Below are positions 3,221 through 49,887 of a DNA stretch of 57,596 nt, in pieces. Position 1 is the first letter of the stretch. Every line of letters starts with the position of its first letter. Position numbers and translations under genes: made by a program. Under the pieces are notes generated by a model that saw only the letters and a program-made list of their open reading frames with translations, searched no databases and had not been told where the DNA came from. Source of the DNA: Acidimicrobiia bacterium (GTDB lineage Bacteria > Actinomycetota > Acidimicrobiia > Spongiisociales > ZC4RG35); the NCBI GenBank assembly GCA_041599115.1, contig JBFHXF010000001.1:1-57596 (forward strand), read 5' to 3'.

Positions 3221-4063
3221 GTGACCAATGATGTGACCGCTACTTCCAGTACCGCAAGCGACACCATCAAAAAGATCGGTCCTGCCCTCGTCATCGCATC
3301 GATACTGGGATCGACGCTGGGAATCGTCGTCGCCCAGTTCCTCGACGACCTGGGTGACGGCTTGTTGGCCCAAGTCCTGGGTGGCAACGCGATCCTTTTC
3401 AACAACAGAGTCGAGTTCACCGGCGCCTCCGACCTGGCCTGGGCAGGGGGCTTCCTGCTGTGTCTGATCGTGGGACTGTTGATGCTCTTCACCTATCCCA
3501 CCGCTCGCGGCCACGGTGTTGCCCGATTGACCCTTCTCTGGATGCTGCTCCACATTCTCCGGCAGGCGTTCCTTCAGGCGATCCTGCTACCTATCGAGCC
3601 CTCTAGCCAGCTCGCCCTGGCGTATCGAACACTGGACGCCCCCCCGGGTCTCGAGGTCGTGATCGCCGCCGGTGGCGCAGTCGGGCTCTTGCTGATCGCC
3701 CTCTCAGCGGCGGCTGCTTTCCTGACCTTCACACCCCACCGTCGACTGATCTCCACAGGGAAGAGACGATTCAGCCTGGCTCTATGGCTTGGACTTGTTC
3801 CTGCAGCCATCTCCATCTTCCTGGCGATTCCATACTTCGCCTCGGGTGTGAGCAGCGGCGTCATACCCGCGCTTCCGCTGACCGCACTCATGTTCCTGGC
3901 GACCCTGGCCGCTGCCCCAGGCACCACGACCGTGCAAGGTCCCGAAGACCAGAGAGAAACCCCGATGCCGTGGGGACTCGGAGCCACTCTCGCGGTGATC
4001 ATGCTGTTGGAGATACTCATCTTCCGGGGCGGGGTGTCGGTCAACCCGATCCTTTGGGGTTGA
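3221..4063 (+). CDS. polytopic membrane protein, hypothetical
   Basis: ORF 3080-4063. Its first 140 nt overlap the thioesterase gene on the opposite strand, so GTG 3221 (or 3233) is the likelier start. About 7 hydrophobic segments. Confidence 0.55.
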   Translation: MTNDVTATSSTASDTIKKIGPALVIASILGSTLGIVVAQFLDDLGDGLLAQVLGGNAILFNNRVEFTGASDLAWAGGFLLCLIVGLLMLFTYPTARGHGVARLTLLWMLLHILRQAFLQAILLPIEPSSQLALAYRTLDAPPGLEVVIAAGGAVGLLLIALSAAAAFLTFTPHRRLISTGKRRFSLALWLGLVPAAISIFLAIPYFASGVSSGVIPALPLTALMFLATLAAAPGTTTVQGPEDQRETPMPWGLGATLAVIMLLEILIFRGGVSVNPILWG

Positions 4064-20058: not shown

Positions 20059-20635
20059 GCGGATGTCGGGCGTCGTACAGATGCCTTGGGGTGAGGAGCA
20101 GAGCCAGCGCGAGCGACAGGATCACCATCATTCCTCTCGACTCGAGTCCCCAGCCCTGAGGCCAATGGAATACCTGCCAGGCCACTGAGAGGAGGATGGC
20201 GCCACCGAGGGCTATGAGCGTGGCATATCCCGATGATCTCGTGAGCAGAAGCGCGATGGCAATCAGGACGACCAGCGCCGGGAAGGCCAAAGGCCAGGCC
20301 GCGAGGAGCACTCCGCCCGTGATCGAGAGTCCTTTCCCCCCGTCAAAGCGGTACCACATGTTGTAGATGTTGCCGGTGATGGAGGCGATGCCGGCCAGGA
20401 CGGCACCAGTCTCGCCGCCGAGGGTGGTACCGATGATCACCGCCAGCGCACCTTTGGACATCTCGACGAGGAGGACGATCGCTGCCAGCCGAATACCCCC
20501 CACACGACGGGCGTTGTTGGCCCCAGGGTTTCCCGAGCCGGAGGTTCTCAGATTCACACCGAACATCCGGGCTATCCCGTTGGCCGTGGGCATCGAACCG
20601 ATCAGATATCCCAGCAGCGGGGCGAGGGCGATCAC
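20051..20635 (-). CDS. plsY: acyl-phosphate:glycerol-3-phosphate acyltransferase
   Basis: LGYLIGSMPTANGIARMFGVNLRTSGSGNPGANNARR is typical PlsY. The GTG start overlaps the adnB stop (GTGA). Confidence 0.9.
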   Translation of the reverse strand: MIALAPLLGYLIGSMPTANGIARMFGVNLRTSGSGNPGANNARRVGGIRLAAIVLLVEMSKGALAVIIGTTLGGETGAVLAGIASITGNIYNMWYRFDGGKGLSITGGVLLAAWPLAFPALVVLIAIALLLTRSSGYATLIALGGAILLSVAWQVFHWPQGWGLESRGMMVILSLALALLLTPRHLYDARHPLR

Positions 20636-23600
20636 GGTCGTGAGGTCCAGACCTGTCCGGGGCTGCAGAAACCAAGAAAATCACAGTTGGCGCACCACCG
20701 ACCCGGTCGCTCTTCAAATGCGGCTTGCGAGATGTCCGCAGTGAGTGCCCCCAGATGCGATCTGGCTGTATCGGTCCATTCACGGTCGGCGTGATGGGTC
20801 TCTATCGTCAAACCACCGCCGAAATAGGCGAAGGTGACGTCCATTGTCGTAGGTGTGTCGAGGCCGAAATCGACCTCCAGACCGGCCACCGCATATGCCT
20901 CCAATTGGACCATTCGGGCGTCATCGGTGCTGGGTCTTCCGCTCTTGAAATCGACGATCTCCCAACGGCCCTCATCGTCATAGACGGCATCGATGCGTCC
21001 CCTCACCCTGTAACCGTTGTCGAGTTCAAGCTCGAAAGGAGCCTCAACCAGCGCTGGCTGTTTGGCGGCGAAGCGCGATTCCCGAAATACGTGGAAGCCA
21101 CCCGGCCCGACCGCCTCTTCCGGGACGTCGTACAGGTCGGGCTCCACCTCATCGAAGGGGACCTGACCGCGGTGAAACAACTCGATTCTCCGGTGGAACT
21201 CGGTGCCTGCTATCGCGGCCGGATTTCGCCGTCTGGGAAGGGGATCGACATCGGACCAGTAGAACCGCTTTGGGCATTGTGCGTAGGTGACCAGTCCGGT
21301 CACCGAAACCACCCGGGTCCGCTCCGACGTCACGGCAGGTTCGATGCGACCGAGGTCGAACAGACGATCAGTCAACCGCTCGACCTCCTCTTCGAACTCG
21401 ACGGAAACACCCAGCGACTCGGCCAGATCTGCCATTGTCGTTTCGGTTTCGACTGTTCGCCGGAGGGCCTCATTCCACCCGCCACGGAAGAGTGGGTCGG
21501 GTGAGGCCTCCGCTTCATTGGCGGCCAGTATGGCCGGTCTCGGTGGGGCTTCCTCGTGAGTCCGCACATTGACCTGGGCATGCGAAGCGACCATTTCAAA
21601 AAGCTCGGACGGCTTGCTTGGCTTTAGCTTGGGCTCGGGAAGGCCGTACCAGTACGCGCCGGTGACGATCAGGGTGTGTTTGGCCCGGGTGGTGGCGACA
21701 TAGGCGATTCGCCACTCCTGGATGTCGTTCCGCTCCTTGAAGAAATCATCGCGAGCCTGTCGATCCTCGGGCATCTCATCGAGAAGGTGGTCGATCCGAA
21801 AGGCCGGAGGGACGTACTCGGCGAATCGAAGGGGGTCGGGATGCTGGATGGACCGGCCGGGAAAACTCTGATGCACCACGACCGGAACGGCCACAATGTC
21901 CCATTCCAGACCTTTGGCCCTGTGGACGGTCACCAATGTCACCGCATCCTCGCCGGAGAGATGAGCCGAGTCGAGCTCTTCCGCAGGCTCGTCTTCCATC
22001 GCCTCGAGATACTCGAGGAAGGCGCCCAGCGAAGGGCGGCCTCCAAGGGGACTCCAGTCTTCGGCGAGGTCCAGCATCCGATAGATATTGAGCCTCGCCG
22101 TGAGCCTTTGGTTCTTGGGGAGGGAATCCATGTCCCTCCAGGCGTTGGTTCGATCAAGGACGAGCCGGCAAGTTTCGACCAGGCTGACTCCCTGGGACTC
22201 CACCAGAATCCCTCGGTACGTCTCGAAAAAATGGGTGAGTGTCTTTCTGGCTTCTTCGCGTAGCTCGATCTCCTCGCAGTGTTCTATCGCTTCGAGAATC
22301 GTTATGGCTGGTACTTCTTCACTGTCCTCGTCGAGATCCTGAGAATGGACCCAGGCTGAAAGCGGAGCGATATCGGCCAGGCCGAGCCTGTAGCGGCTTC
22401 CCAGCAGGATCTGAGCGACCGCGGCAGAATCTCCGGGTCGTTCCAGAATGGTGAGCCAGGAGCGCAAGTCGCTGATCTCGGGGACCGACAGAAGGCCGCC
22501 CAAGTTGGCGACTTCCACCGGGATGTCGGCCCGTCTCATGGCGTCGACCACAACAGCGAAATCCTTGTTCTTGCGGAACAGCACGGCCATCGATTTCCAA
22601 GGAGCGCCCTCCTGGTGCAGAGCTTCGAATCTTGCCGCGACGAAATCGGCTTCTGCCACGGCATCCCCTACCCAGGCGGTGATCACCTGGCCACCCACCA
22701 CGCTCCCGTGGGGCTCCAACCGGTTAGCGACGGGATTGGCCCTCAATCGGACGTGGTTTGCCACCTCGAGGATCTCGGGGGCAGACCGGCGATTGGTGGT
22801 GAGACTGAGATCGTGGGCATGCTGCCCTCCCGAACGCGGGAAATGATCGAGGAACATTTCGAAATTCTCTGCCGATGCTCCCCGCCATTCGTAGATCGTT
22901 TGATCCTCGTCCCCGACGGCGATCACCGGAAAGCCGTTCCCGAAGATCGTGTTGAACAGGACCCGTTGCGCCGGGTTGGTGTCCTGGTACTCGTCCAGCA
23001 CCACGACCTGGTACCGGCTTCTCACCTCGGCGGCCAGCAACGGGTGGAGGATCATGAGACGTGAAGAGAGCAGGACAAGGTCGCCATAGTCGACGACTCC
23101 GAGTCTCAGTTTGTCTGCCTCGTAACCCTCGAGCGTGGCCAACATCTCAGCCCGGGATTTGGCTACATCGTCGGCATCATCGAGAAGGCGCGGCAGGTCG
23201 GCGGGGAGAAGGAGTTGATCGGCGAGTCGGTCACCCAACATGCGGATTCTGTCGATCATCCTGGGAGAGGTGATGTCGAGCTGGTCATATCGAGTTCGAT
23301 GAAACCTCTCACCGATGAGCTGCCGAGAAAAGGTGGGGGTGATCACCCTTATTCGACTGCTCAGACCGGCGAGCGAGGCGAATTCCGAAAGGACCTGGGT
23401 GGCAAAGCCGTGATAGGTGTGGACCTCGACCTGGCGTCCGTCGTCGATCTGGGATGCGAGGTTCTCTCGAATCCGGTCACTGAGTTCGGCTGCCGCCTTG
23501 TTGGTGAAGGTGATACCCAGGACCCTTTCCGGCTCGACCTGTTTGGTGTTGACCAGGTTGGCCACGACCATCGCCACGGTTGTCGTCTTGCCTGTGCCGG

Positions 23601-23676
23601 CCCCGGCACGAATCCGAATCGAGTCGAGTCCGAGATCCAACACTCCCTGCTGTTCTGGCGAAGGTTGGTGGATCAT
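20632..23676 (-). CDS. adnB: UvrD-like helicase / RecB-like nuclease subunit (AdnB-type)
   Basis: ATG 23676 overlaps the adnA stop (ATGA). Walker A GAGTGKTT, DEYQDT, C-terminal nuclease GRIDAVYDDEGRWEIVDFKSG, Cys motif CANCDFLGFC. Named by gene order (second of pair). Confidence 0.8.
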   Translation of the reverse strand: MIHQPSPEQQGVLDLGLDSIRIRAGAGTGKTTTVAMVVANLVNTKQVEPERVLGITFTNKAAAELSDRIRENLASQIDDGRQVEVHTYHGFATQVLSEFASLAGLSSRIRVITPTFSRQLIGERFHRTRYDQLDITSPRMIDRIRMLGDRLADQLLLPADLPRLLDDADDVAKSRAEMLATLEGYEADKLRLGVVDYGDLVLLSSRLMILHPLLAAEVRSRYQVVVLDEYQDTNPAQRVLFNTIFGNGFPVIAVGDEDQTIYEWRGASAENFEMFLDHFPRSGGQHAHDLSLTTNRRSAPEILEVANHVRLRANPVANRLEPHGSVVGGQVITAWVGDAVAEADFVAARFEALHQEGAPWKSMAVLFRKNKDFAVVVDAMRRADIPVEVANLGGLLSVPEISDLRSWLTILERPGDSAAVAQILLGSRYRLGLADIAPLSAWVHSQDLDEDSEEVPAITILEAIEHCEEIELREEARKTLTHFFETYRGILVESQGVSLVETCRLVLDRTNAWRDMDSLPKNQRLTARLNIYRMLDLAEDWSPLGGRPSLGAFLEYLEAMEDEPAEELDSAHLSGEDAVTLVTVHRAKGLEWDIVAVPVVVHQSFPGRSIQHPDPLRFAEYVPPAFRIDHLLDEMPEDRQARDDFFKERNDIQEWRIAYVATTRAKHTLIVTGAYWYGLPEPKLKPSKPSELFEMVASHAQVNVRTHEEAPPRPAILAANEAEASPDPLFRGGWNEALRRTVETETTMADLAESLGVSVEFEEEVERLTDRLFDLGRIEPAVTSERTRVVSVTGLVTYAQCPKRFYWSDVDPLPRRRNPAAIAGTEFHRRIELFHRGQVPFDEVEPDLYDVPEEAVGPGGFHVFRESRFAAKQPALVEAPFELELDNGYRVRGRIDAVYDDEGRWEIVDFKSGRPSTDDARMVQLEAYAVAGLEVDFGLDTPTTMDVTFAYFGGGLTIETHHADREWTDTARSHLGALTADISQAAFEERPGRWCANCDFLGFCSPGQVWTSRP

Positions 23677-26627
23677 GAGATATACGCTCCCCGTCCTTGT
23701 GGCCAGGCAGGACACGAGGTCTGGAACTCGCACTTGCCGCACCTCTCATTGACACGGGGCGCCCAGATCTCACCCAGGATCGCAAGGGTGATCTCGGCCA
23801 TCGCCGCTGTCGCCTGGTCGAGACTCTCGATGTCGAGTTTTCGCACGGTCACACCGACAGAGTTGGCCCTGGGAAACCACATCTCAGCGCCTCGGACCGC
23901 TTCTCCGAAAACCCGGTTTGCCGCCGTGGCGTAGAAGGCGAGTTGAATGGACTCGGCGGCAGCAGCAACGCTCGGGTACGACTTGCCCGACTTGTAGTCG
24001 ACGACCTGCAACCCGTCTTTGGTGCGTTCGAGGCGATCAATGAGGCCCACCCAGGCAACACCCTCTATCTCGGTCTCGACCCTGGTCTCCAGGGCGAGGG
24101 GGACTCCGTTCCCGGGCCATCGGTCGTACAGTTTCGTGAGCCCCTCGATGGCATGCCGCTTCCATGCCTCGTTCAGCTGCGGCGTGCCGAAATCGGCATC
24201 CTTCCAAACCTCCTCGATTGCATCAAGGGCCGTGGCGAGATCCGCATGAGTCGCCCCTGTTCCCAGAATGGTCGATTCTGAGATCTCCAGGACGCGATGC
24301 ACCAGAGAGCCGAAGCGGGCGTAGGGTGATTCGCTGTCTCCCAGGCGCAAGCGGCGCTCCATGGCGTATCGGCGCGGACAGGTCGCGTACGACTCGGCCT
24401 GGCTGGGCGACAGGCGGATCGAAACAGGGAGGAGTGGGGCGTCCGGTCCGAAGGCGGGAACCCCGGCGAAACGGTCCGGCTCCCACCATCCGCCCGGCGC
24501 TGTGGCGAGAACCTGCGTGGCGGCCAATCGAGCCACGGCCGGGGCATGCGGGTCGAGGACCTTTCGCCGCAGCGATACCTCGAACTCGGAGACCGTCACC
24601 GGGTCCAGCTGGGACTCCTTGGGAGCTCCCAGGGATTCGATCGACGTGACCCCTGCGGCTGCAATCAGGAAGCGGGAAGGTCGTCGCTCCCCCTGGTCCA
24701 CGCCGGCGTCAGTAGCCGTCCACACCACCCTCCTCTTCGCCCTCGTCATGGCGGTGTATGCCAGACGCATCTCCTCCTGAACTTGGAACAGATGCTGCGC
24801 GCCGATATTGGTGGCCCGTTCCGGTGAAAGGAGTTCTGGCCGGAGCATTCTCCGGCTGCGGCGCAGGTCCGGAAAGACACTTTCGACCGCATTGGCGATG
24901 AAGACATGGTCAAACTCCAGTCCTTTGGCCTGGTGGAGGGTGGTCAAAGTGATCTGGTCCGTGTGCGGGGTGGGCGAAATCAGCGGGGTGGCCTCGAAAT
25001 CTTCTTCCTCGGTCAGCTCGAAGTAACGGGCGAGGGAGACGCTCGGGTCCCGATCGGCCTGCCGGCTGAGCGCCTGGGCGAAGGAGCTGAAAGCCAGGCG
25101 CCATTGATCCTTGTCAGGGTGTTTGGCGATCGCCTCGAAGACTCCGAGGCTGGTCCACAGGTGCCAGAACCCTTCGCTGGCCGGTCCGGAGGTCGCCCAG
25201 CGATTGTCAACCAGGATTCCTCTCAGATCGCTGGCTGCAACCCCTTCTTGTTCGAGGATGTCCACCCAAGAAAGCCCAAGCCGGCGGCGGCGTCTCGCCA
25301 GATCACGCTCTTTTCCCAGGGAGGTGGCAAACAGCGGACCAAGCATTACGCGGCGCATGGCCCGGTCGGCCTCCGCTGCCTGACCGGGTGGGACGCCTCT
25401 GGCCGATCCGCCCTGGACGGCAACGGTCACCAGATCGTTGACGAGGCGAATCGCAGGATGATCGACAAGTCTGCGTCTCGGCGGGTCGTGGGGCAGGTCG
25501 CGTCGTTGCAGAGCTCGACTCAGCTCGTTGAGCATTTCCCTCTTGGATCTCACCAGAATGGCGATGTTCCCCGGGAGGACCCCCTCGGCCCTGACGGCGT
25601 GCTCGATCTCCTGAGCGATCCACTCCGCTTCGGCGGTTTCCTGATCGAAGATGTAGGCGTCGACCCGTCCAGCGCCTGCAGCTGGTTTGACGGGCCCGGC
25701 GGCACCGGGGAGATCGCCAGAGGACACCACCCTCAGGGCTGCTTCCAGTATCTCTGGAGGAACCCGGAAGCTGCGGTCCAGGACCAGTCGCAGACATCCT
25801 TCGTGCTGTTCACCGAAAGCCGCGATGTTTCGAACCTCGGACCCCCGGAAGGAATAGACCGACTGGTAGGGATCTCCAGCCACCGTCAGATTGCCGTTGG
25901 GCCTGGCCAGGAGGTTGGCAATCGATGCCTGAGCGGGAGATGTGTCCTGGTAGTCGTCGACCAAGACGAACCTGTAGCCGCTTGCGATCTGCTGGCCTCG
26001 GGTGGTTCGGAGAAAGTCAACCGCAGAGACGAGAAGAGTGCCGTAATCGATCCTCTCCATGTCGAGGAGGCGTTGGCGGTATTTTTCGAAGAACTCGGGG
26101 ATGCCCCGCCAGTCGTGTCGCTCGAGCGCTTTTTGCCGGAGGTCCTCCGGGGACAGCAACCGCTCGGCGCATCGCATCAAGAAGTCGGCGATCTCGGCTG
26201 CGAAGGCGGGGGAGGGGAGGATCCCTCGATAGATGAGGGGCCAATCGGTAGGCCGTTCGGCTCTGAGAAGGTCACCGACGACCGCTACGTGTTCGGGTGT
26301 GGTCAGCGGTATGGGTCGCTGGCCTGATCCAACTTCGAGCAACCTCAGGGAGAGGCTGTGGAAGGTGGACGACTCGACCGGCATTCCGGATTGGCCCAGG
26401 GACTCGGTGATTCTGCGGCGAAGATCGGACGCCGACCTCCTGGAGAAGCTGAAGACCGCCACCTCATCGCGGCGGGCCAGACCGGACCCCACGATGGAAG
26501 CCACCCGGCGAACCAGGAACTCCGTCTTCCCCGTACCGGGCCCGGCGACGATCAACTGCGCACCATCCGCTCGGTCGAGCCATTGACCCCACTCTTGGGG
26601 GGAGATCCGATGGTCCCTCACAGCCAC
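23673..26627 (-). CDS. adnA: UvrD-like helicase / RecB-like nuclease subunit (AdnA-type)
   Basis: 984 aa. Walker A GPGTGKTE, DDYQDT, nuclease GLIDRLERTKDGLQVVDYKSG, Cys motif CGKCEFQTSC. First gene of the pair. Confidence 0.8.
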   Translation of the reverse strand: MAVRDHRISPQEWGQWLDRADGAQLIVAGPGTGKTEFLVRRVASIVGSGLARRDEVAVFSFSRRSASDLRRRITESLGQSGMPVESSTFHSLSLRLLEVGSGQRPIPLTTPEHVAVVGDLLRAERPTDWPLIYRGILPSPAFAAEIADFLMRCAERLLSPEDLRQKALERHDWRGIPEFFEKYRQRLLDMERIDYGTLLVSAVDFLRTTRGQQIASGYRFVLVDDYQDTSPAQASIANLLARPNGNLTVAGDPYQSVYSFRGSEVRNIAAFGEQHEGCLRLVLDRSFRVPPEILEAALRVVSSGDLPGAAGPVKPAAGAGRVDAYIFDQETAEAEWIAQEIEHAVRAEGVLPGNIAILVRSKREMLNELSRALQRRDLPHDPPRRRLVDHPAIRLVNDLVTVAVQGGSARGVPPGQAAEADRAMRRVMLGPLFATSLGKERDLARRRRRLGLSWVDILEQEGVAASDLRGILVDNRWATSGPASEGFWHLWTSLGVFEAIAKHPDKDQWRLAFSSFAQALSRQADRDPSVSLARYFELTEEEDFEATPLISPTPHTDQITLTTLHQAKGLEFDHVFIANAVESVFPDLRRSRRMLRPELLSPERATNIGAQHLFQVQEEMRLAYTAMTRAKRRVVWTATDAGVDQGERRPSRFLIAAAGVTSIESLGAPKESQLDPVTVSEFEVSLRRKVLDPHAPAVARLAATQVLATAPGGWWEPDRFAGVPAFGPDAPLLPVSIRLSPSQAESYATCPRRYAMERRLRLGDSESPYARFGSLVHRVLEISESTILGTGATHADLATALDAIEEVWKDADFGTPQLNEAWKRHAIEGLTKLYDRWPGNGVPLALETRVETEIEGVAWVGLIDRLERTKDGLQVVDYKSGKSYPSVAAAAESIQLAFYATAANRVFGEAVRGAEMWFPRANSVGVTVRKLDIESLDQATAAMAEITLAILGEIWAPRVNERCGKCEFQTSCPAWPQGRGAYIS

Positions 26628-26643
26628 CTCGGGATGGTATCTG

Positions 26644-26829
26644 TCAAGCGGCTTGCGGCAGTGGCGCGGGGGTCGTTCCCACCACGACTGCCTCGAGTCC
26701 GAGCCCGCGTAGATAGGAAACCGGATCCTCGAAGACGCTGTCGGCCCAGGGTTGCGGGTGGGATTGGCAGGTGTGCTTGTTCATCGGGGAGTCCGTCGAT
26801 GGGCGGGTGTTGATGGTTGTCGTTCTCAT
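26644..26829 (-). CDS. small hypothetical protein (61 aa) immediately upstream of adnA
   Basis: ATG 26829 to TGA 26644, ending 16 nt before the adnA start. MRTTTINTRPSTDSPMNKHTCQSHPQPWADSVFEDPVSYLRGLGLEAVVVG.. The longer track ORF (to 27012) overlaps gdh. I recognise no family. Confidence 0.35.
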   Translation of the reverse strand: MRTTTINTRPSTDSPMNKHTCQSHPQPWADSVFEDPVSYLRGLGLEAVVVGTTPAPLPQAA

Positions 26830-26886
26830 GATGGGATCGAATTTAAGAGACGGGTATGACAAAAAGAGTCGGGGCGAACTCATAAG

Positions 26887-28184
<1,298 letters not shown>

Positions 28185-28188
<4 letters not shown>

Positions 28189-28970
28189 ATCGGTTCGGCG
28201 AATGCCGGGCAGATCTCCTGGTAGGAGCACCAGTCGCACAGCCGACCGGGACGGGTGGGAAATCGGTCCGATGCCAGGGCTCGCTCGATGGCCGTCCACA
28301 AGGCTTGGAGTTGGCTGTGCATTGCGTCGAGTTGCCGGTCGTCGATCGCGAGGCGGTACATCGTCGGACCGTTCAGGTAGAGCAGCCGGATTTCCTTTGG
28401 CGTCTCGCCGGTCCTCTCTCTGATGAGCAGGGCGTAGATCTTCAATGCGAAGAAGGCGGGCAGGGCGTAGCTCTCCGGAGGGGCTTTCCCGGTCTTGTAG
28501 TCGGTGATGATGAGTGCGCCATCGTCGGCGCGATCCATCCGGTCGAGGATTCCCCTGATGGTGAGTCCGTCGAGCTCCTGGGTCATATCCAGCTCGCGAT
28601 CGACCGGCTCGATCAGTTGAGGGTCTTCGACAGTGAAGTAATTGGCCAGAAGCTGCATGGAGTCGACACCCCAAACACGCTCTTCCTCGAGATCATCGAA
28701 CAGGTGCTCGTACTCGTCACTGCTACGCAATTCGGTCCATGCGGCCCGGAACAGGTCATAGAGATTCTCAGGCGATCGCTCCTGGGCCGGCATGTCGAAG
28801 AGGCGCTGCAAGGCCAGGTGGGCAGTGGTACCACGGGCTTGATAGATCGATGCCGGCTCGGGGATCTTGTCGATGGCACGGAACTTGAACAATTGGGGGC
28901 ACGTCTTGAAGTCCCCGGCGCGACTTGGCGAAAGGGTCTGCAGAGTCGGGTTTTCCAGTTCCATCGTCAT
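28185..28970 (-). CDS. RecB-family PD-(D/E)XK exonuclease (Cas4/AddB-like, four-Cys)
   Basis: 261 aa. GILDRMDRADDGALIITDYKTGK nuclease core. Cys at FKTCPQLF plus CDWCSYQEIC at the C-terminus. Confidence 0.85.
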
Positions 28971-29022
28971 TCACACGATCTTAGGAACCGGGTCTGACAG
29001 ATTCCGGCCAACCGAGAACCTC

Positions 29023-29052
29023 CGCGAAAACTCTTGCTAGCGCGCGAAAAAC
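29023..29052 (+). repeat. direct repeat pair CGCGAAAAC / CGCGAAAAAC (20-nt register)
   Basis: Copies at 29023-29031 and 29043-29052. In the divergent promoter zone, upstream of the putative -35 at 29069. Confidence 0.5.
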
Positions 29053-29068
29053 TTCGAGAGGGATCGCC

Positions 29069-29097
29069 TTGACGACCCCGGCGATGGGCCGTACCTT
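29069..29097 (+). promoter_or_regulatory. putative sigma-A type promoter TTGACG-17 nt-TACCTT
   Basis: -35 TTGACG at 29069-29074 and -10 TACCTT (TANNNT) at 29092-29097. Predicts a TSS near 29104. Sequence-only inference. Confidence 0.35.
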
Positions 29098-29175
29098 CGT
29101 TAGCACTGATCAGGGGGAGACCTCAGATCAGGGAAAGAGGGACTTCGGTTCCTCTGGATCGTCGCCCGGCTGGGG

Positions 29176-29254
29176 GCCCGCTTTCCGGCTGGGTGGCAAT
29201 GAGAGCCCCGAGAGGGCTGAGGCTTCGGCCGAAGCTCGCTCGGGGTTTCTCGTG
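29176..29254 (+). repeat. hairpin module copy A (core hairpin 29201-29251)
   Basis: GAGAGCCCCGAG-AGGGCU-GA-GGC(UUCG)GCC-GA-AGCUC-G-CUCGGGGUUUCUC: about 20 bp in three stacked helices with a tandem G.A internal loop. Confidence 0.6.
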
Positions 29255-29266
29255 TCCCGGACCGGG

Positions 29267-29298
29267 TCGCGAAAACAGGAATCCAGGTCGCGAAAAAC
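29267..29298 (+). repeat. direct repeat pair GGTCGCGAAAAC / GGTCGCGAAAAAC (21-nt register)
   Basis: Copies at 29265-29276 and 29286-29298. Same CGCGAAAA core as the pair at 29023-29052. Confidence 0.5.
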
Positions 29299-29665
29299 AA
29301 TCAAGCTTCTGGCTTGCCAGTCGCACGGCAATGGTCTACTTTCGTTTTCACGCCAAAGGGGAAACTTGGAGGCGTACCCGACCAGCAGGTACGGAGCGGC
29401 GAAAGCCGAGCCGGGAAGAATTCCCGCAGGAAGGGTGTCGGAGCACCGGGAAACTGGGGCTTCGGCAGGCCGGAAGTCCGGACGGGGATCCTTCGGGATC
29501 GTCGAGCGGGTTTCCACGGCCAGCGGGTCTCACGACTCGCAACATCTTCTCGGAGACGAGAAGAGCGGCCCGACAGGCGGCATCTGCCGAAAGGCAGGAG
29601 CAAACCATCGGATCGCACGCCCGAGGCTTCGGCCAACGGCATTCCCGACCGGAGTTGGGTCCCCG

Positions 29666-29739
29666 GCCCGATTCCAACTGGGACGAGAACCCCGAGAGGG
29701 TTGAGGCTTCGGCCAAGGCTCCCTCGGGGTCTTCTCGCG
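29666..29739 (+). repeat. hairpin module copy B (core hairpin 29685-29736)
   Basis: Direct-orientation copy of module A about 485 nt downstream. Six substitutions plus one 1-nt indel across the ~54-nt core, and none breaks a base pair. Confidence 0.6.
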
Positions 29740-29752
29740 TTTGAACGACCCA

Positions 29753-29795
29753 GCGTGTGCAGGGGGAAGCGTGTGACCCGCTCTACTGCACACGC
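29753..29795 (+). terminator. perfect 10-bp stem hairpin (GCGTGTGCAG-N23-CTGCACACGC), possible terminator/attenuator without U-tract
   Basis: Read directly. Ends 22 nt before the ATG at 29818. No T-run follows, so intrinsic-terminator status is uncertain. Confidence 0.35.
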
Positions 29796-29817
29796 AACAG
29801 CCTGTAGCCTGGGTGAC

Positions 29818-30423
29818 ATGTCCTACCCACGCAAGCTTCTCAGCAGTGGCGAGACCATAGGCGCCGAGTTCCGGCCCCACTGGTCGTCCATCCTCAGGGA
29901 ACTTCTCCTGCTGATTTTGACCCTGGTCTTCGTCATCCTCGGTGCCATCAACGGCTTTTCCGGATGGGTGCTGGCTGCGATCTCGGTGGCGGCGGTGGCC
30001 CTGGTGGCAAAGGGGTTGATCCGCTGGTACACCACGATCCACGTGATCACCAACGAGCGGGTCATCTATCGCTCCGGTCTGATTTCGAAGCGGGGGAAGG
30101 AGATCCCGCTCGAGGTGGTCAACGATGTGGCTTTCAGCCAATCGGTTTTCGAACGTATCTTCGGAACGGGCGATCTGCTCATCGAATCTGCCGGGGAACA
30201 GGGTCAATCCAGGTACACCGACATACCCAACCCGGAAGGTGTCCAGTCGCTCATCTACTCGGCCCGTGAGACCCGCACCCTGCAGTTGAGGGGAGTCGGC
30301 ACCGCGACGTCGGGGGAGTCGACCGCCTCGCAGTTGGCAACTCTGTCCAGACTGCTCGACGAGGGAAAGCTCACCGTTGAAGAGTTCGCCCGCGAAAAGA
30401 GCAAGCTTCTCGGAGGTTTGTGA
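29818..30423 (+). CDS. membrane protein with bPH_2 (YdbS/DUF304-like) domain and C-terminal SHOCT domain
   Basis: 201 aa from ATG 29818. Two TMs, then ITNERVIYRSGLISKRGKEIPLEVVNDVAFSQSVFERIFGTGDLLIES (bacterial PH). Tail LATLSRLLDEGKLTVEEFAREKSKLLG (SHOCT). Confidence 0.75.
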   Translation: MSYPRKLLSSGETIGAEFRPHWSSILRELLLLILTLVFVILGAINGFSGWVLAAISVAAVALVAKGLIRWYTTIHVITNERVIYRSGLISKRGKEIPLEVVNDVAFSQSVFERIFGTGDLLIESAGEQGQSRYTDIPNPEGVQSLIYSARETRTLQLRGVGTATSGESTASQLATLSRLLDEGKLTVEEFAREKSKLLGGL

Positions 30424-35261: not shown

Positions 35262-37043
35262 TCACTCGATCGGTTGCAGCGCCGGTGCCAGGGGAAGTTC
35301 GATGACGAAGGTGGCGCCGCCCCCTTCGGTCTCTTCGACGCGAACCCTGCCGCGCATGACCTCCGAGAGGCTTTTCACAATCGACAAGCCCAGCCCGGTT
35401 CCCCCCCGGGACCTGGTGTCGGATTGGTCGATCTGGGTGAATCTCTCGAAGACTCGATCCCTCTGATCCTGTGGGATCCCGGGACCGTGATCGACCACCG
35501 CCATCACGGCACGATTACCACGCTCCCAGGCGAACATTTCGATAGGACTGCCCGGGGCGTACTTCGCAGCGTTCTCCACGAGGTTTATCAATATGCGTGT
35601 CAAATGATCTATATCGGCCTCCACGGTGAGGTTCGGAGGTTCGATGGTCATGGTCGGTTCTGCGGCGACGACCCGGTTGACGTCGCGGAAGACTTTTCCT
35701 ACCTCGATGTGCTCGGAGTGCACCGGGATGGCGCCGCGATCGATGCGTGACACGACGAGCAGGTCGTCGATCAGCCTCTGAAGACGACCCGCCGAGATCC
35801 GGGCGGTCGCCAGGAGCTGCTGGGCAGTGGCCTGCGCCGGCGCCAATTCGGGTCGGTTCACCGTGTCCAGCGATCCGATGATCGAAGTTAGGGGAGTGCG
35901 CAGCTCGTGGCTCACGGTGGAGACGAAGTCGCTCTTCATCTGAGCAACCTCTTCCAGGCGTCTCGTCATCTCCGCCTGAGCCTCGTATCGGCCGATTTGG
36001 GAGAGAACCAAACCGGCCGGGGCGGCCAGCGACCCGAGTTGCTCGAGTTGCTCCTCGCTGAATGACCCTTCGTATGGATCTCCGATGACAATCACGCCCA
36101 CCCTCAGGCTTTCCACTTTCAGCGGTGCGACCAGGGCCTGTTTCAAACCGAGCTCGCGCAGCAGCAGGTGGGCATCGGAGTCCTCGACGACTTGTCGGAC
36201 GAATATGGGCTTTGCCGCCCTGAAAGCTTGGGCGACCACTCCCGGTCCACCTACCTCGACCACGATGACCTCGGTGTCCAGCGGGTAGCCGTTGACCCAG
36301 ATCGGGCTCATCACCTCGAGCCAATGACGATCAGGGTTGTAGAGGAGAACCCCTCCGACCTGCGCATCGAGGTATTTGCAGATGGTGCCGACCAGATGAG
36401 GCACGATTTCTGCGAGGGACTCCGCCCTGGCCAGGGTGGCGCTCACCTCATAGAGACGCTCGAGGTCGCGTCGCTGTTGATCGATTTGGACCTCGCTCTC
36501 GATGGCGCGCACTGCCTCTCGCTCGAACTCGAGACCCACGATCGCAGTTGCTGCGGCCACGATCGCCATGGTCAGCAACGGCGCCACCACGTCGATGAGG
36601 GCATCTGCTTGGCCAAGGGAAAAGGCGACCGAACTTATACCGGCCCCAATGAACACGGTCATGAATGCATGTGCCCACCAGGTGAGCAGCAGACCCGAGA
36701 CCGCGGTGATCCCAAAGAGGATCGGTTCGGCAATCGGATTGAGATCGGGGATCAATGCCAGGACGCTGATGCCAACCACCAGGCTGGCCAGCCATGCGGT
36801 CGAGATCCAGGGGGCGGCGGCGGTGGTCATGAGACGCTCCCAGCGCACCGCGGCCGAGATGGTGAGCAAGGCGGCGATGGCGGCCATCGGAATCCACGAG
36901 CGAGGCTCGGTGAATACCCCGGTCCTCACTGCCTGTGCGGCGATGACGATGAGGACCACCCAGGCAATTGCCGAGGCGCGGCGCAAAAGAGACGCCCGGA
37001 AGCGCGCCATGGCTTGATGAGTCGTCGGGACTGGATGTTCCAT
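35262..37043 (-). CDS. membrane sensor histidine kinase with GAF domain
   Basis: 593 aa. About 6 N-terminal TMs, a central GAF-like region, H-box SHELRTPLTSIIG, and N/G boxes (NLVENAAKY, GTGLGLSIV). Confidence 0.85.
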   Translation of the reverse strand: MEHPVPTTHQAMARFRASLLRRASAIAWVVLIVIAAQAVRTGVFTEPRSWIPMAAIAALLTISAAVRWERLMTTAAAPWISTAWLASLVVGISVLALIPDLNPIAEPILFGITAVSGLLLTWWAHAFMTVFIGAGISSVAFSLGQADALIDVVAPLLTMAIVAAATAIVGLEFEREAVRAIESEVQIDQQRRDLERLYEVSATLARAESLAEIVPHLVGTICKYLDAQVGGVLLYNPDRHWLEVMSPIWVNGYPLDTEVIVVEVGGPGVVAQAFRAAKPIFVRQVVEDSDAHLLLRELGLKQALVAPLKVESLRVGVIVIGDPYEGSFSEEQLEQLGSLAAPAGLVLSQIGRYEAQAEMTRRLEEVAQMKSDFVSTVSHELRTPLTSIIGSLDTVNRPELAPAQATAQQLLATARISAGRLQRLIDDLLVVSRIDRGAIPVHSEHIEVGKVFRDVNRVVAAEPTMTIEPPNLTVEADIDHLTRILINLVENAAKYAPGSPIEMFAWERGNRAVMAVVDHGPGIPQDQRDRVFERFTQIDQSDTRSRGGTGLGLSIVKSLSEVMRGRVRVEETEGGGATFVIELPLAPALQPIE

Positions 37044-37110
37044 ATCGCCGGGGTTTAGCCCGTTACCTGTATTCTCGGCATTTCTTCAGCAATGATCGAG
37101 GATTGAAAGT

Positions 37111-37857
37111 TTGGCTCTGCGCGCACTTGCCGATGGATCGGTCTTCGCCGAGGTCACCGGGTCGTCGTCGCCCCGTATTCTCGCACTCCACGGCTGGGCC
37201 CGTCGTGGCAATGACTTCGGCCCGGTCCTCTCGGGGCTGGATGCCATTGCCCCCGATCTCCCCGGCTTCGGTGCCTCACCAGAACCGCCTGGCGTCATGG
37301 GCGCCGAGGGTTACGCCCGGTTGATCCGCCCGATTCTCGACGAGTTCCGCCAACCGCCGGTGGTTATCGGGCACTCGTTCGGCGGCAGGGTGGCGGTGTG
37401 CCTGGCCGAAGTCAACCCAGATCGCGTCGGGCCACTGGTTCTGACTGGCGTTCCCCTCGTGAAGATGACCCCTTCCCGAACGCCGGATCTGGGCTATCGG
37501 ATCGCGAAAGGGCTGAACCGGTTTGGGCTCTTGTCCGATGCCCGCCTCGAGAGGGAGAAGAAGAGGCGCGGGTCTTCCGACTACCGGGCCGCCGGCGGAG
37601 TGATGCGCGACATCCTCGTAACGGTCGTCAACGAGTCCTACGAGGAGCAATTGCGGGGGTTGAAGGGGCCGGTGCGCCTGGTTTGGGGTGGGCGAGACAG
37701 CGAGGTGCCTCTCGAAGTGGCCGAAGTGGCAGTCCGCATTCTCACCGACGCCGGGGTCGAAGCCGATCTGACCGTTCTCGAAGGCATCGGGCATTTGACC
37801 CCCTCGGAGGCACCCGGACACCTGCGGGCGGCGGTTCTCGAGTTCCTGCGAAGATGA
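37111..37857 (+). CDS. alpha/beta-fold hydrolase
   Basis: 248 aa (TTG start). ILALHGWARRG, nucleophile elbow GHSFGG, C-terminal GIGHL. Confidence 0.8.
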   Translation: MALRALADGSVFAEVTGSSSPRILALHGWARRGNDFGPVLSGLDAIAPDLPGFGASPEPPGVMGAEGYARLIRPILDEFRQPPVVIGHSFGGRVAVCLAEVNPDRVGPLVLTGVPLVKMTPSRTPDLGYRIAKGLNRFGLLSDARLEREKKRRGSSDYRAAGGVMRDILVTVVNESYEEQLRGLKGPVRLVWGGRDSEVPLEVAEVAVRILTDAGVEADLTVLEGIGHLTPSEAPGHLRAAVLEFLRR

Positions 37858-48499: not shown

Positions 48500-49345
48500 A
48501 TGCCCGAGCTACCTGAAGTCGAATTGACCCGGCGTCATCTCGACGCGGCAATGACCGGCAAGTTGATCGAGTCGGCGAAGGTCGCTCACCCTCGGACAGC
48601 GCGACGAAACAGCGGACCGCAAGAAGTTGAGCAACGGTTGGCGAGACGCCGGGTTTTGGCCGTCGAGCGCACGGGGAAATACCTTCACGCGCCACTCGAC
48701 GACGGTCAGATCTTGGTTGCGCATTTGGGCATGTCAGGTCGTTTCACCGTCAATGGCCCGATCGAACCCCATACCCATTTCACCGCGGTGATGGAGGGGG
48801 GTGACGCGGTTCGCTTCATCGACCCCCGCACCTTCGGTTTCATCGCGGTCTGCGCCGCTGACGAGATCGCGGACTCGACTCTGGGGCGCCTTGGCCCCGA
48901 TTCATGGGCAGAGCCTGTCGATCCGGGCCAACTCGAGGAGAAACTAAAGAATCGGACTGCTCCCATAAAGGCCCTGTTGTTGGATCAGTATTTGGTTTCG
49001 GGTTTGGGAAACATCTATGCAGATGAGGCCCTGCATATGGCAGGCATCCACCCGGCCCGCCCCGGCGGGTCCCTGAGACGGGAGGATCTCGATAGGTTGG
49101 TGGTGTCGATCGGGCTGGTCCTCGATTCTGCCATTGAGCATGGCGGCACCAGCCTCGATGACCTCGCTTATCTGCTTCCCAACGGCAGGGCAGGCGAGAA
49201 TCTCGGCCGACTCGCCGTCTACGGACGGACTGACCTCCCATGTTTCGCATGTGGCACTCCGATCCGGCGGATTGTGCTGCGCTCCCGGTCGGCTCACTTT
49301 TGTCCTGTGTGCCAAGGCGAAATCATGGATACTTTGGTGAAATGA
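48500..49345 (+). CDS. mutM: formamidopyrimidine-DNA glycosylase / DNA-(AP site) lyase
   Basis: N-terminal MPELPEVE and C-terminal zinc finger CFACGTPI...FCPVCQ. Confidence 0.9.
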   Translation: MPELPEVELTRRHLDAAMTGKLIESAKVAHPRTARRNSGPQEVEQRLARRRVLAVERTGKYLHAPLDDGQILVAHLGMSGRFTVNGPIEPHTHFTAVMEGGDAVRFIDPRTFGFIAVCAADEIADSTLGRLGPDSWAEPVDPGQLEEKLKNRTAPIKALLLDQYLVSGLGNIYADEALHMAGIHPARPGGSLRREDLDRLVVSIGLVLDSAIEHGGTSLDDLAYLLPNGRAGENLGRLAVYGRTDLPCFACGTPIRRIVLRSRSAHFCPVCQGEIMDTLVK

Positions 49346-49887
49346 CGGCCAGGGACAAGGCTCTCAGGGGTCTGGCAGATGTTCTGACCGGCGGACGCCT
49401 GGTGATAGCGGGGGTTATCGCCATCGCGGCCTATCGAGCTGATTGGAACCTGGTTGCCTTACTGCTCTCCCTGGCGTGGTGGTCAGATTTCTCAGATGGC
49501 AGGCTGGCCCGGAGGGCCGGGGGAGGTACCCGGCTGGGGGCATGGGACTTGAGGGTGGACACCGCGGTCGGTGCGATGCTTCTCGTCGGAATGACCCTGG
49601 GCGCACACATCAGCATCGTTTGGGGAGTCGTAGGAGCCGGTCTGGGGTTTGGTTACATCCTGACTGCAAATGGCTCGCTCGCCATGCTCCTTCAGGCGAT
49701 CGCCTATGGTCACGCCCTTCGGCTCTCTGCGGTCGAGGGCTTTCCCGGGTTCGTCGCGGCGACCGTCACGATTGGTGTCATTCTCGTATCGAGCTGGCCG
49801 CGTTTCGTCCAGGAAGTCGTTCCCACCTTCCTGAGCGGCCTTGTGGGGGATAGACGTGTGGAGAGCGAGCCGCGATCCGATGGATGA
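49342..49887 (+). CDS. CDP-alcohol phosphatidyltransferase family membrane protein
   Basis: ATG 49342 overlaps the mutM stop (ATGA). DFSDGRLARRAGGGTRLGAWDLRVD approximates the DxxDGxxAR...G..D...D motif. Confidence 0.7.
   Translation: MTARDKALRGLADVLTGGRLVIAGVIAIAAYRADWNLVALLLSLAWWSDFSDGRLARRAGGGTRLGAWDLRVDTAVGAMLLVGMTLGAHISIVWGVVGAGLGFGYILTANGSLAMLLQAIAYGHALRLSAVEGFPGFVAATVTIGVILVSSWPRFVQEVVPTFLSGLVGDRRVESEPRSDG

Follow-up and report, generated by a model that had tools for sequence, protein, structure and literature searches.

Between a gene for a PD-(D/E)XK nuclease on the minus strand and a gene for a bPH/SHOCT protein on the plus strand, the window analysed here (57,596 nt of contig JBFHXF010000001.1 from an Acidimicrobiia bacterium) contains an unusually long intergenic gap. 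Comparison with related genomes indicates that the gap very probably carries two real and separate, co-oriented small RNA (sRNA) genes of one new family, a short unit (RNA1) and a long unit (RNA2), and orthologues of both unit types persist at the same locus in an uncultured clade of Acidimicrobiia. The features of the gap are as follows.

28971–29817: intergenic gap, 847 bp, between the nuclease gene (minus strand) and the bPH/SHOCT gene (plus strand)
29023–29029 and 29043–29049, plus strand: upstream boxes of unit 1, a CGCGAAA direct repeat with starts 20 bp apart
29069–29097, plus strand: promoter-like core of unit 1 (TTGACG at 29069–29074, 17-bp spacer, TACCTT at 29092–29097)
about 29105–29252, plus strand: RNA1, about 148 nt with predicted ends, four hairpins
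29106–29131, 29136–29155 and 29161–29197: RNA1 hairpins H1 (GNRA loop), H2 (UUCG loop) and H3 (loop GGGCCCGCUUU); the terminator hairpin comes last
29199–29253, plus strand: RNA1 terminator module, a 46-nt hairpin (GAGAGCCCCGAGAGGGCUGAGGCUUCGGCCGAAGCUCGCUCGGGGU) followed by UUCUCGUG (repeat D1, inverted repeat I1)
29268–29274 and 29289–29295, plus strand: upstream boxes of unit 2 (CGCGAAA), 21 bp apart
29314–29342, plus strand: promoter-like core of unit 2 (TTGCCA at 29314–29319, 17-bp spacer, TACTTT at 29337–29342)
about 29350–29742, plus strand: RNA2, about 390 nt with predicted ends, about 12 hairpins, most of them with a GAAA, GAGA or UUCG loop
29478–29509, plus strand: invariant hairpin of RNA2 (...CGGGGAUCC-UUCG-GGAUCGUCGAGCG), identical in sequence in 20 species
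29645–29681, plus strand: C-rich-loop hairpin of RNA2 (GGAGUUGGGUCCCCGGCCCGA, loop UCCCCGG), helix 19
29685–29742, plus strand: RNA2 terminator module, helices 20 and 21, then CUUCUCGCGUUUG
29746–29817, plus strand: spacer between RNA2 and the bPH/SHOCT gene, unconserved, containing the hairpin at 29753–29795 and lying outside the RNA family

Coding status, strand and division of the gap

The GC content at the three codon positions is flat throughout the gap, while both flanking genes show a strong periodicity at the third position (GC3). A window-wide scan of codon-position GC found here the longest aperiodic stretch of the window (885 nt; the runner-up measures 525 nt). The seven open reading frames (ORFs) that overlap the gap returned no Pfam matches, and the longest of them matched no PDB chain. 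A 369-aa ORF with a TTG start (29314–30423) corresponds to the bPH gene plus a spurious N-terminal stretch that crosses RNA2, as this stretch is without a Pfam match and GC3 periodicity begins only near 29818. The gap had been described as non-coding in a preliminary description of the window, and these data agree with that view.

The hexamer CTTCGG occurs six times on the plus strand of the gap, at exactly the positions reported in the preliminary description, and its reverse complement (CCGAAG) once. The other 56.7 kb of the window contain 39 copies, corresponding to 0.58 per 847 nt, so that the gap is enriched about 10-fold, and by our own arithmetic the Poisson probability of finding at least six copies in such a gap is about 3e-5. 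Predicted plus-strand folds are far more stable than those of dinucleotide-shuffled sequences, both for the RNA1 segment (29104–29256; minimum free energy (MFE) −91.7, z = −5.9) and for the RNA2 segment (29349–29745; MFE −209.1, z = −6.95), compared to a z of −2.24 for the minus strand of the latter. The species alignments presented below give independent strand information. G-U pairs make up 17% of the paired cells in RNA1 and 11.5% in RNA2, and when the opposite strand is read as RNA these are lost and pairing falls to 78% and 82%, respectively. Compensatory changes so rich in G-U pairs make sense only in an RNA of the plus strand, in agreement with the fold z-scores. The earlier proposal of a strand-specific RNA is thus upheld, and the conclusion that the gap encodes a strand-specific, structured, non-coding RNA is supported by these comparisons.

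That proposal envisaged a single RNA of about 690 nt (29104–29796), which the anatomy of the gap contradicts. The 110 nt preceding each of the two RNA bodies can be aligned with one another, having in common the paired boxes (CGCGAAA...CGCGAAA), CTTGNC and TACNTTCGTT..CAC. The second of these promoter-like blocks (29268–29342), together with the first terminator-like hairpin (29199–29253), divides the gap, and it is therefore read as two units and not as one transcript. The hairpin thought to close the single RNA (29753–29795) lies beyond the terminator of RNA2, shows no significant stability (z = −1.6) and is not conserved in relatives; apart from one locus (L006), alignment of the entire spacer revealed no conservation. 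Most of the stems listed previously recur in the MFE folds, but the stem at 29314–29331 coincides with the −35 element and spacer of the unit 2 promoter core, and so belongs to promoter DNA rather than to an RNA. With regard to size, only the 390-nt unit approaches what is usually meant by a large structured RNA.

The same layout is found in 129 units mapped in related loci. The two boxes lie 20–23 bp apart and the second ends 16–19 bp before a −35 element of the form TTGNNN; the commonest elements are TTGACG, a spacer of 17–18 bp and TACNTT, with the predicted start about 7 nt downstream. The boxes of unit 1 are near-invariant across 30 orthologues, and no other double CGCGAAA box occurs in the window. 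The boxes, at about −60 and −80, are putative activator sites. A literature search for a CGCGAAA direct-repeat operator found nothing relevant. The start codon of the divergent nuclease gene (28970, minus strand) is separated from box 1 of unit 1 by only some 53 bp, so the nuclease promoter and the boxes must overlap, and a single factor could act on the nuclease and unit 1 alike. This adjacency is lost where another gene intervenes (e.g. L005).

At the other end of each unit is a 46-nt hairpin module, present twice in the gap (29201–29246 and 29685–29730, 484 nt apart, 89% identity) and nowhere else in the window. The RNA1 copy is near-invariant over 30 species. The hairpin is strong (about 20 bp). 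Two signatures of the module are kept across species, GGGCUG mostly in short units and GGGUUG in the long units of the close clade that includes the window, which suggests that the short and long types diverged long ago as paralogues and did not arise by a recent gene conversion.

Related loci and conserved structure

Homologues of the nuclease number in the hundreds among Acidimicrobiia metagenome bins (75–89% identity), and a scan of GTDB species representatives for this gene yielded 78 loci. Searches with each unit (nhmmer) found both in more than 40 loci, often along with extra terminator modules. A covariance model built from RNA1 (R1) gave exactly two matches in the window, corresponding to the two units (157 and 69.5 bits), and matched 67 of 72 Acidimicrobiia-type loci, the other five being contigs that end beside the nuclease gene. 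Homologous loci had been proposed as a check on the preliminary description, and the outcome was favourable, with both conservation and compensatory base changes in the predicted folds.

When units were mapped as a double box followed by a hairpin module, between one and six tandem units were counted per locus, and none at Streptosporangium or distant loci. Predicted RNA lengths for the 129 units are bimodal, with 71 at 137–155 nt and 46 at about 260–585 nt, mostly above 300 nt. Some loci carry convergent units that share one bidirectional hairpin. In nine of them (L046, L047, L050, L052, L053, L056, L059, L069 and L073, at about 3600–3900) the module shared by the facing units matches the terminator pattern on both strands and is apparently a bidirectional terminator. 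Double-box promoters followed by no recognisable terminator module or RNA1-like body were also seen (L006, 3160–3866; L062, L066 and L061, about 3870–3916), which suggests that the family includes additional, divergent unit types.

Arrays are nearly always flanked by the PD-(D/E)XK nuclease and bPH/SHOCT genes, within a conserved order (adnAB-(gdh)-nuclease-[array]-bPH-acyl-CoA ligase) that shows few rearrangements and some gene insertions. A metagenome scan that used the hairpin motif alone returned eight contigs, six of which have the same neighbours; the spacer in the search pattern was one base too short, so this is an undercount. Genes inserted between the nuclease gene and the array were considered as candidates for a transcription factor or partner gene but gave no lead. 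By eye they include an MFS-type transporter-like gene, an M24-like peptidase and a SnoaL-like protein. Just past the six-unit array of L035 are two paralogous ORFs of 94 and 135 aa on the minus strand (1145–1429 and 1552–1959) that have a YAWWIVR...LANWI.DSR motif in common.

The consensus structure of RNA1 (23 species) has 40 pairs, half of which (20) show a compensatory change. Of the cells, 95.1% are paired, compared to 88.0% after column shuffling, none of 500 shuffles reached the observed value on four of five measures, and slid controls gave 36–63%. For RNA2 (20 species) the consensus has 116 pairs in 21 helices, with compensatory change in 51, and 90.0% of cells are paired, as against 83.5% in shuffled alignments (0/500) and 31–51% in slid controls. 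Three blocks do not vary in sequence within the close clade, namely the UUCG hairpin at 29478–29509 (helix 12, in which eight of 11 pairs never vary), the C-rich-loop hairpin at 29645–29681 and the terminator module. Entire hairpins are gained or lost between species.

Family-wide, 83% of the predicted hairpin loops of short units and 75% of those of long units are UNCG or GNRA tetraloops. Non-loop single-stranded linkers hold only about 5% of 4-mers and are purine-rich. The larger conserved loops are all C-rich (H3 in RNA1, UCCCCGG in RNA2) and are limited to the close clade; the hairpin at 29645–29681, which carries motif B, has the sole conserved non-tetraloop hairpin loop of RNA2. Throughout the family, conservation extends to the architecture of hairpins, to a GNRA hairpin at the 5' end and to the invariant hairpin at the 3' end, but to no accessible single-stranded or large-loop segment. 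A segment of the RNA1 loop (29168–29174, GGGGGCC) is complementary to a segment of the RNA2 loop (29658–29664, GGUCCCC) over 7 bp including one G-U pair. Both motifs occur in the same clade only and both are invariant, hence covariation is uninformative on a kissing interaction. A possible pairing of the RNA2 C-loop with the messenger RNA (mRNA) of the nuclease (repeat D9) was rejected, as the complementarity is lost at wobble positions in relatives.

Comparison with known RNAs and possible function

No Rfam 15 family matched at the gathering threshold anywhere in the window, a check proposed in the preliminary description, or in 16 related loci. Below the threshold (E ≤ 10) the best match in the gap was to a microRNA model (E = 0.63), and these are chance matches. 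ARAGORN detected no transfer RNA or transfer-messenger RNA genes in the window, and no published description of this RNA family was found in the literature searched. The family is absent from Rfam and is of the kind known as sibling or multi-copy structured sRNAs: paralogous units, each with its own predicted promoter and terminator, with a conserved upstream element in common. The closest parallels in organisation are LhrC1-5 of Listeria, the streptococcal csRNAs with their CiaR repeats, and OmrA/OmrB of E. coli, where tandem independent genes, each with promoter and terminator, follow an upstream direct repeat and where copy number also differs among relatives. The present family is without sequence or Rfam relation to any of these and differs from them in having two size classes (one of about 390 nt), loops that are nearly all UNCG or GNRA instead of accessible seeds, and a terminator hairpin that is conserved in sequence.

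In its possible mode of working the family resembles CsrB/CsrC and RsmX/Y/Z, which also consist of a variable count of short hairpins, exist as short and long paralogues, in some cases with multiple copies, and have a conserved upstream activating sequence and a terminator at the end. However, the loops here carry no GGA motifs (GGA k-mers are confined to the short purine-rich linkers), there is no Rfam match, and we know of no CsrA/RsmA partner in this lineage. 6C RNA, also from Actinobacteria, has a conserved C-rich hairpin loop as well, but its size and architecture are different, Rfam returned no match, and the C-rich loop is not universal here. Like the orphan large RNAs OLE, GOLLD, ROOL, HEARO and raiA, the RNAs are long, GC-rich, supported by covariation and located in long intergenic regions; they are, however, smaller and unmatched in Rfam, and the modular gain and loss of hairpins from one species to another speaks against a single rigid tertiary fold. 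The 6S model (RF00013) gave no match, and the predicted folds are strings of four or about 12 hairpins rather than a rod of about 180 nt with a central bubble.

Within the same phylum, Ms1 (MTS2823, scr3559) is likewise a strongly structured RNA of a few hundred nt that evolves fast, and a PH-domain gene recurs as its neighbour. It is widespread in Actinobacteria at 230–300 nt, and the Ms1 RNAs of S. coelicolor and M. smegmatis show no BLAST similarity to each other (PMC9130861). Its synteny consists of a HAD-IB hydrolase on one flank and an oxidoreductase, Fic, PH or similar protein on the other, 'PH domain-containing protein' being a recurrent annotation next to Ms1 intergenic regions (PMC9130861). 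An Acidimicrobiia counterpart of Ms1 (or a 6S-like RNA), abundant and binding the RNA polymerase core so as to buffer its level in stationary phase, would be consistent with that divergence, with an array directly upstream of a bPH_2/SHOCT gene, and with Ms1 itself being unreported in Acidimicrobiia. We regard it as improbable. At the present locus the PH-domain flank is found and the other flank is the PD-(D/E)XK nuclease, which is absent from the listed Ms1 neighbours. The HAD protein of the window is of type II/IA, not IB, and is non-adjacent (3.2 kb distant). The hairpin strings do not resemble a long rod with a central bubble, nor do arrays of up to six copies and a 150-nt class resemble Ms1, and in a more distantly related Acidimicrobiales lineage (metagenome-assembled genomes of Acidimicrobiia) the bPH orthologues have no RNA upstream. 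Rfam gave no match to Ms1 even at E ≤ 10, and hidden Markov models (HMMs) of the units, run at the same E limit, had no match in the Ms1 of S. coelicolor, although such tests are weak given how divergent Ms1 is. Nor do the motifs of the family occur in the sequence supplement of PMC9130861. Homology to Ms1 was judged improbable, also because in Streptosporangium Ms1 is on a different contig from the nuclease homologue, and membership in Ms1 is not supported by these comparisons.

Explanations that do without two independent RNA genes fare worse. That RNA2 acts in cis on the bPH/SHOCT gene, as a leader or attenuator whose terminator controls read-through, is suggested by the usual position of the array, co-oriented with and immediately 5' of bPH (about 75 nt in the window), and yet seems very improbable: every unit comes with a predicted promoter and terminator of its own, as many as six units are stacked in a locus, bPH is on the other side of the nuclease gene in L049, L055, L060 and L063 and is separated from the array by other genes in several loci, no antiterminator pairing is conserved, and neither is the spacer. 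One structured RNA of about 690 nt would account for both parts being on the same strand, and read-through of the weak first terminator is conceivable. It is scarcely tenable in view of the complete second promoter block with its boxes, conserved between the parts in every species, the varying order and number of units among genomes, and the lack of conservation of the supposed 3' hairpin. Least probable of all is a feature that is not an RNA, either a decayed gene or a cluster of DNA repeats or palindromes of the repetitive extragenic palindrome (REP) or bacterial interspersed mosaic element (BIME) type; long ORFs do overlap the gap and the terminator module, which recurs within the locus, has the form of an imperfect palindrome, but the flat GC3, the absence of Pfam and PDB matches, the G-U-rich compensatory changes and the fact that the module is not dispersed in the window speak against it.

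In the scheme outlined here, an activator would bind both boxes, whose centres fall near −60 and −80 on one helical face, the classical positions of upstream activators, and would co-regulate all units; transcription would end at the conserved long hairpin despite its weak U-tract, and the RNAs released there would act in trans. Our tentative preference is for protein-binding RNAs (decoys, sponges or scaffolds, whose dose may be set by copy number) rather than antisense regulators that pair through a seed, because there is no family-wide accessible segment, most loops are tetraloops and as such inert, conservation of the 3' hairpin goes beyond pairing to its sequence, and there are up to six copies. 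As a blend of the two claims, with the sRNA genes very probable and this mechanism less likely than not, our confidence is somewhat better than even. A more ambitious version, a lineage-specific global regulator RNA system in which a single dedicated activator, bound at the phased CGCGAAA boxes, would drive bulk synthesis of tetraloop-hairpin RNAs of both size classes from as many as six copies of the gene, and these RNAs would titrate or scaffold an abundant protein, is rather doubtful. The target could be, for example, RNA polymerase, an RNase or an RNA chaperone, engaged via the invariant 3' hairpin and other hairpins, and if true the system would parallel 6S/Ms1 or CsrB in function, although its fold and its recognition code are unrelated to theirs.

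Alternatively, the units may be sibling base-pairing sRNAs acting in trans as antisense regulators through their C-rich or pyrimidine-rich loops (GGGCCCGCUUUCC in RNA1, UCCCCGG in RNA2). In 6C, LhrC and RsaE, C-rich loops serve to target ribosome-binding sites that are rich in G, and tandem multi-copy genes with a common regulator site are typical of sibling sRNAs such as LhrC1-5, the csRNAs and OmrA/B. In the close clade each RNA has exactly one conserved non-tetraloop loop, which is C-rich, and the units are likewise in tandem copies, each behind a putative regulator site common to all of them. We nevertheless consider base-pairing rather unlikely, since the C-rich loops are absent in distant family members, whose loops are all tetraloops, the one candidate target that was examined, the nuclease mRNA, does not keep its complementarity at wobble positions in relatives, and very little of each RNA is single-stranded.

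Several points count against two sRNA genes that work by protein binding. The single C-rich loop of each RNA in the close clade fits base-pairing regulators equally well, and no transcription factor or protein partner was identified among the genes of the arrays. The transcription start sites and 3' ends of RNA1 and RNA2 are predictions. The TTGACG-17-TACCTT element given as a promoter in the preliminary description is present at 29069–29097, but a generic scan for sigma-70 promoters and terminators called neither it nor any of the other sites, so that promoter and terminator assignments rest on comparative conservation. The U-tracts are weak, the tail UUUCUCG containing only three to four U; tracts of this weakness are frequent among Actinobacteria. 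The alignments were made with MAFFT, and the statistics of the shuffle controls ignore phylogeny. Finally, the fidelity of the arrays to this locus is partly derived from the search, because the loci were found via the nuclease gene.

The Acidimicrobiia are abundant soil and water bacteria, most of which are uncultured, and to our knowledge few regulatory RNAs have been described outside cultured Actinomycetes and none in the Acidimicrobiia. The family is well defined, with promoter and terminator modules, strong covariation and 67 loci, and could enter RNA databases at once. Its near-exclusive use of tetraloops, the sequence-conserved terminator hairpin, the short and long paralogues side by side and the expansion in copy number make it a candidate for a new protein-binding regulatory RNA, and the same traits offer a testable pointer to a further transcription factor. 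The family also bears on what replaces RNAs of the 6S/Ms1 type in those actinobacterial lineages where none has been found.

Neighbouring genes and further observations

The neighbours of the gap are chromosomal housekeeping genes.

20632–26627, minus strand: AdnAB-like helicase-nucleases (UvrD helicase and PD-(D/E)XK)
between the AdnAB-like genes and the nuclease gene: glutamate dehydrogenase
28185–28970, minus strand: PD-(D/E)XK nuclease, 261 aa, divergent from unit 1
29818–30423, plus strand: membrane protein with bPH_2 and SHOCT domains
other neighbours: acyl-CoA ligase, threonine-dehydratase-like enzyme and the type II/IA HAD hydrolase

An origin from a mobile element was considered and rejected, as blastn searches gave no matches in phage and plasmid collections and the terminator module was without a match in IMG/VR. 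The pairing of AdnA/AdnB-like proteins with a stand-alone third PD-(D/E)XK nuclease (20632–28970) is an arrangement kept in nearly all related loci. Upstream of the bPH gene, a −10 element of the TANNNT type (TAGCCT, within 29802–29820) ends 7 nt 5' of the ATG, a position that suggests that the bPH mRNA of this genome is leaderless; in relatives the upstream region instead contains a Shine-Dalgarno sequence (GGAG) together with a conserved CGTTANTCTCC block. Elsewhere in the window, the next-longest aperiodic stretches (2026–2550, 36871–37335 and 49111–49605; 465–525 nt) may be gene junctions or other non-coding DNA.

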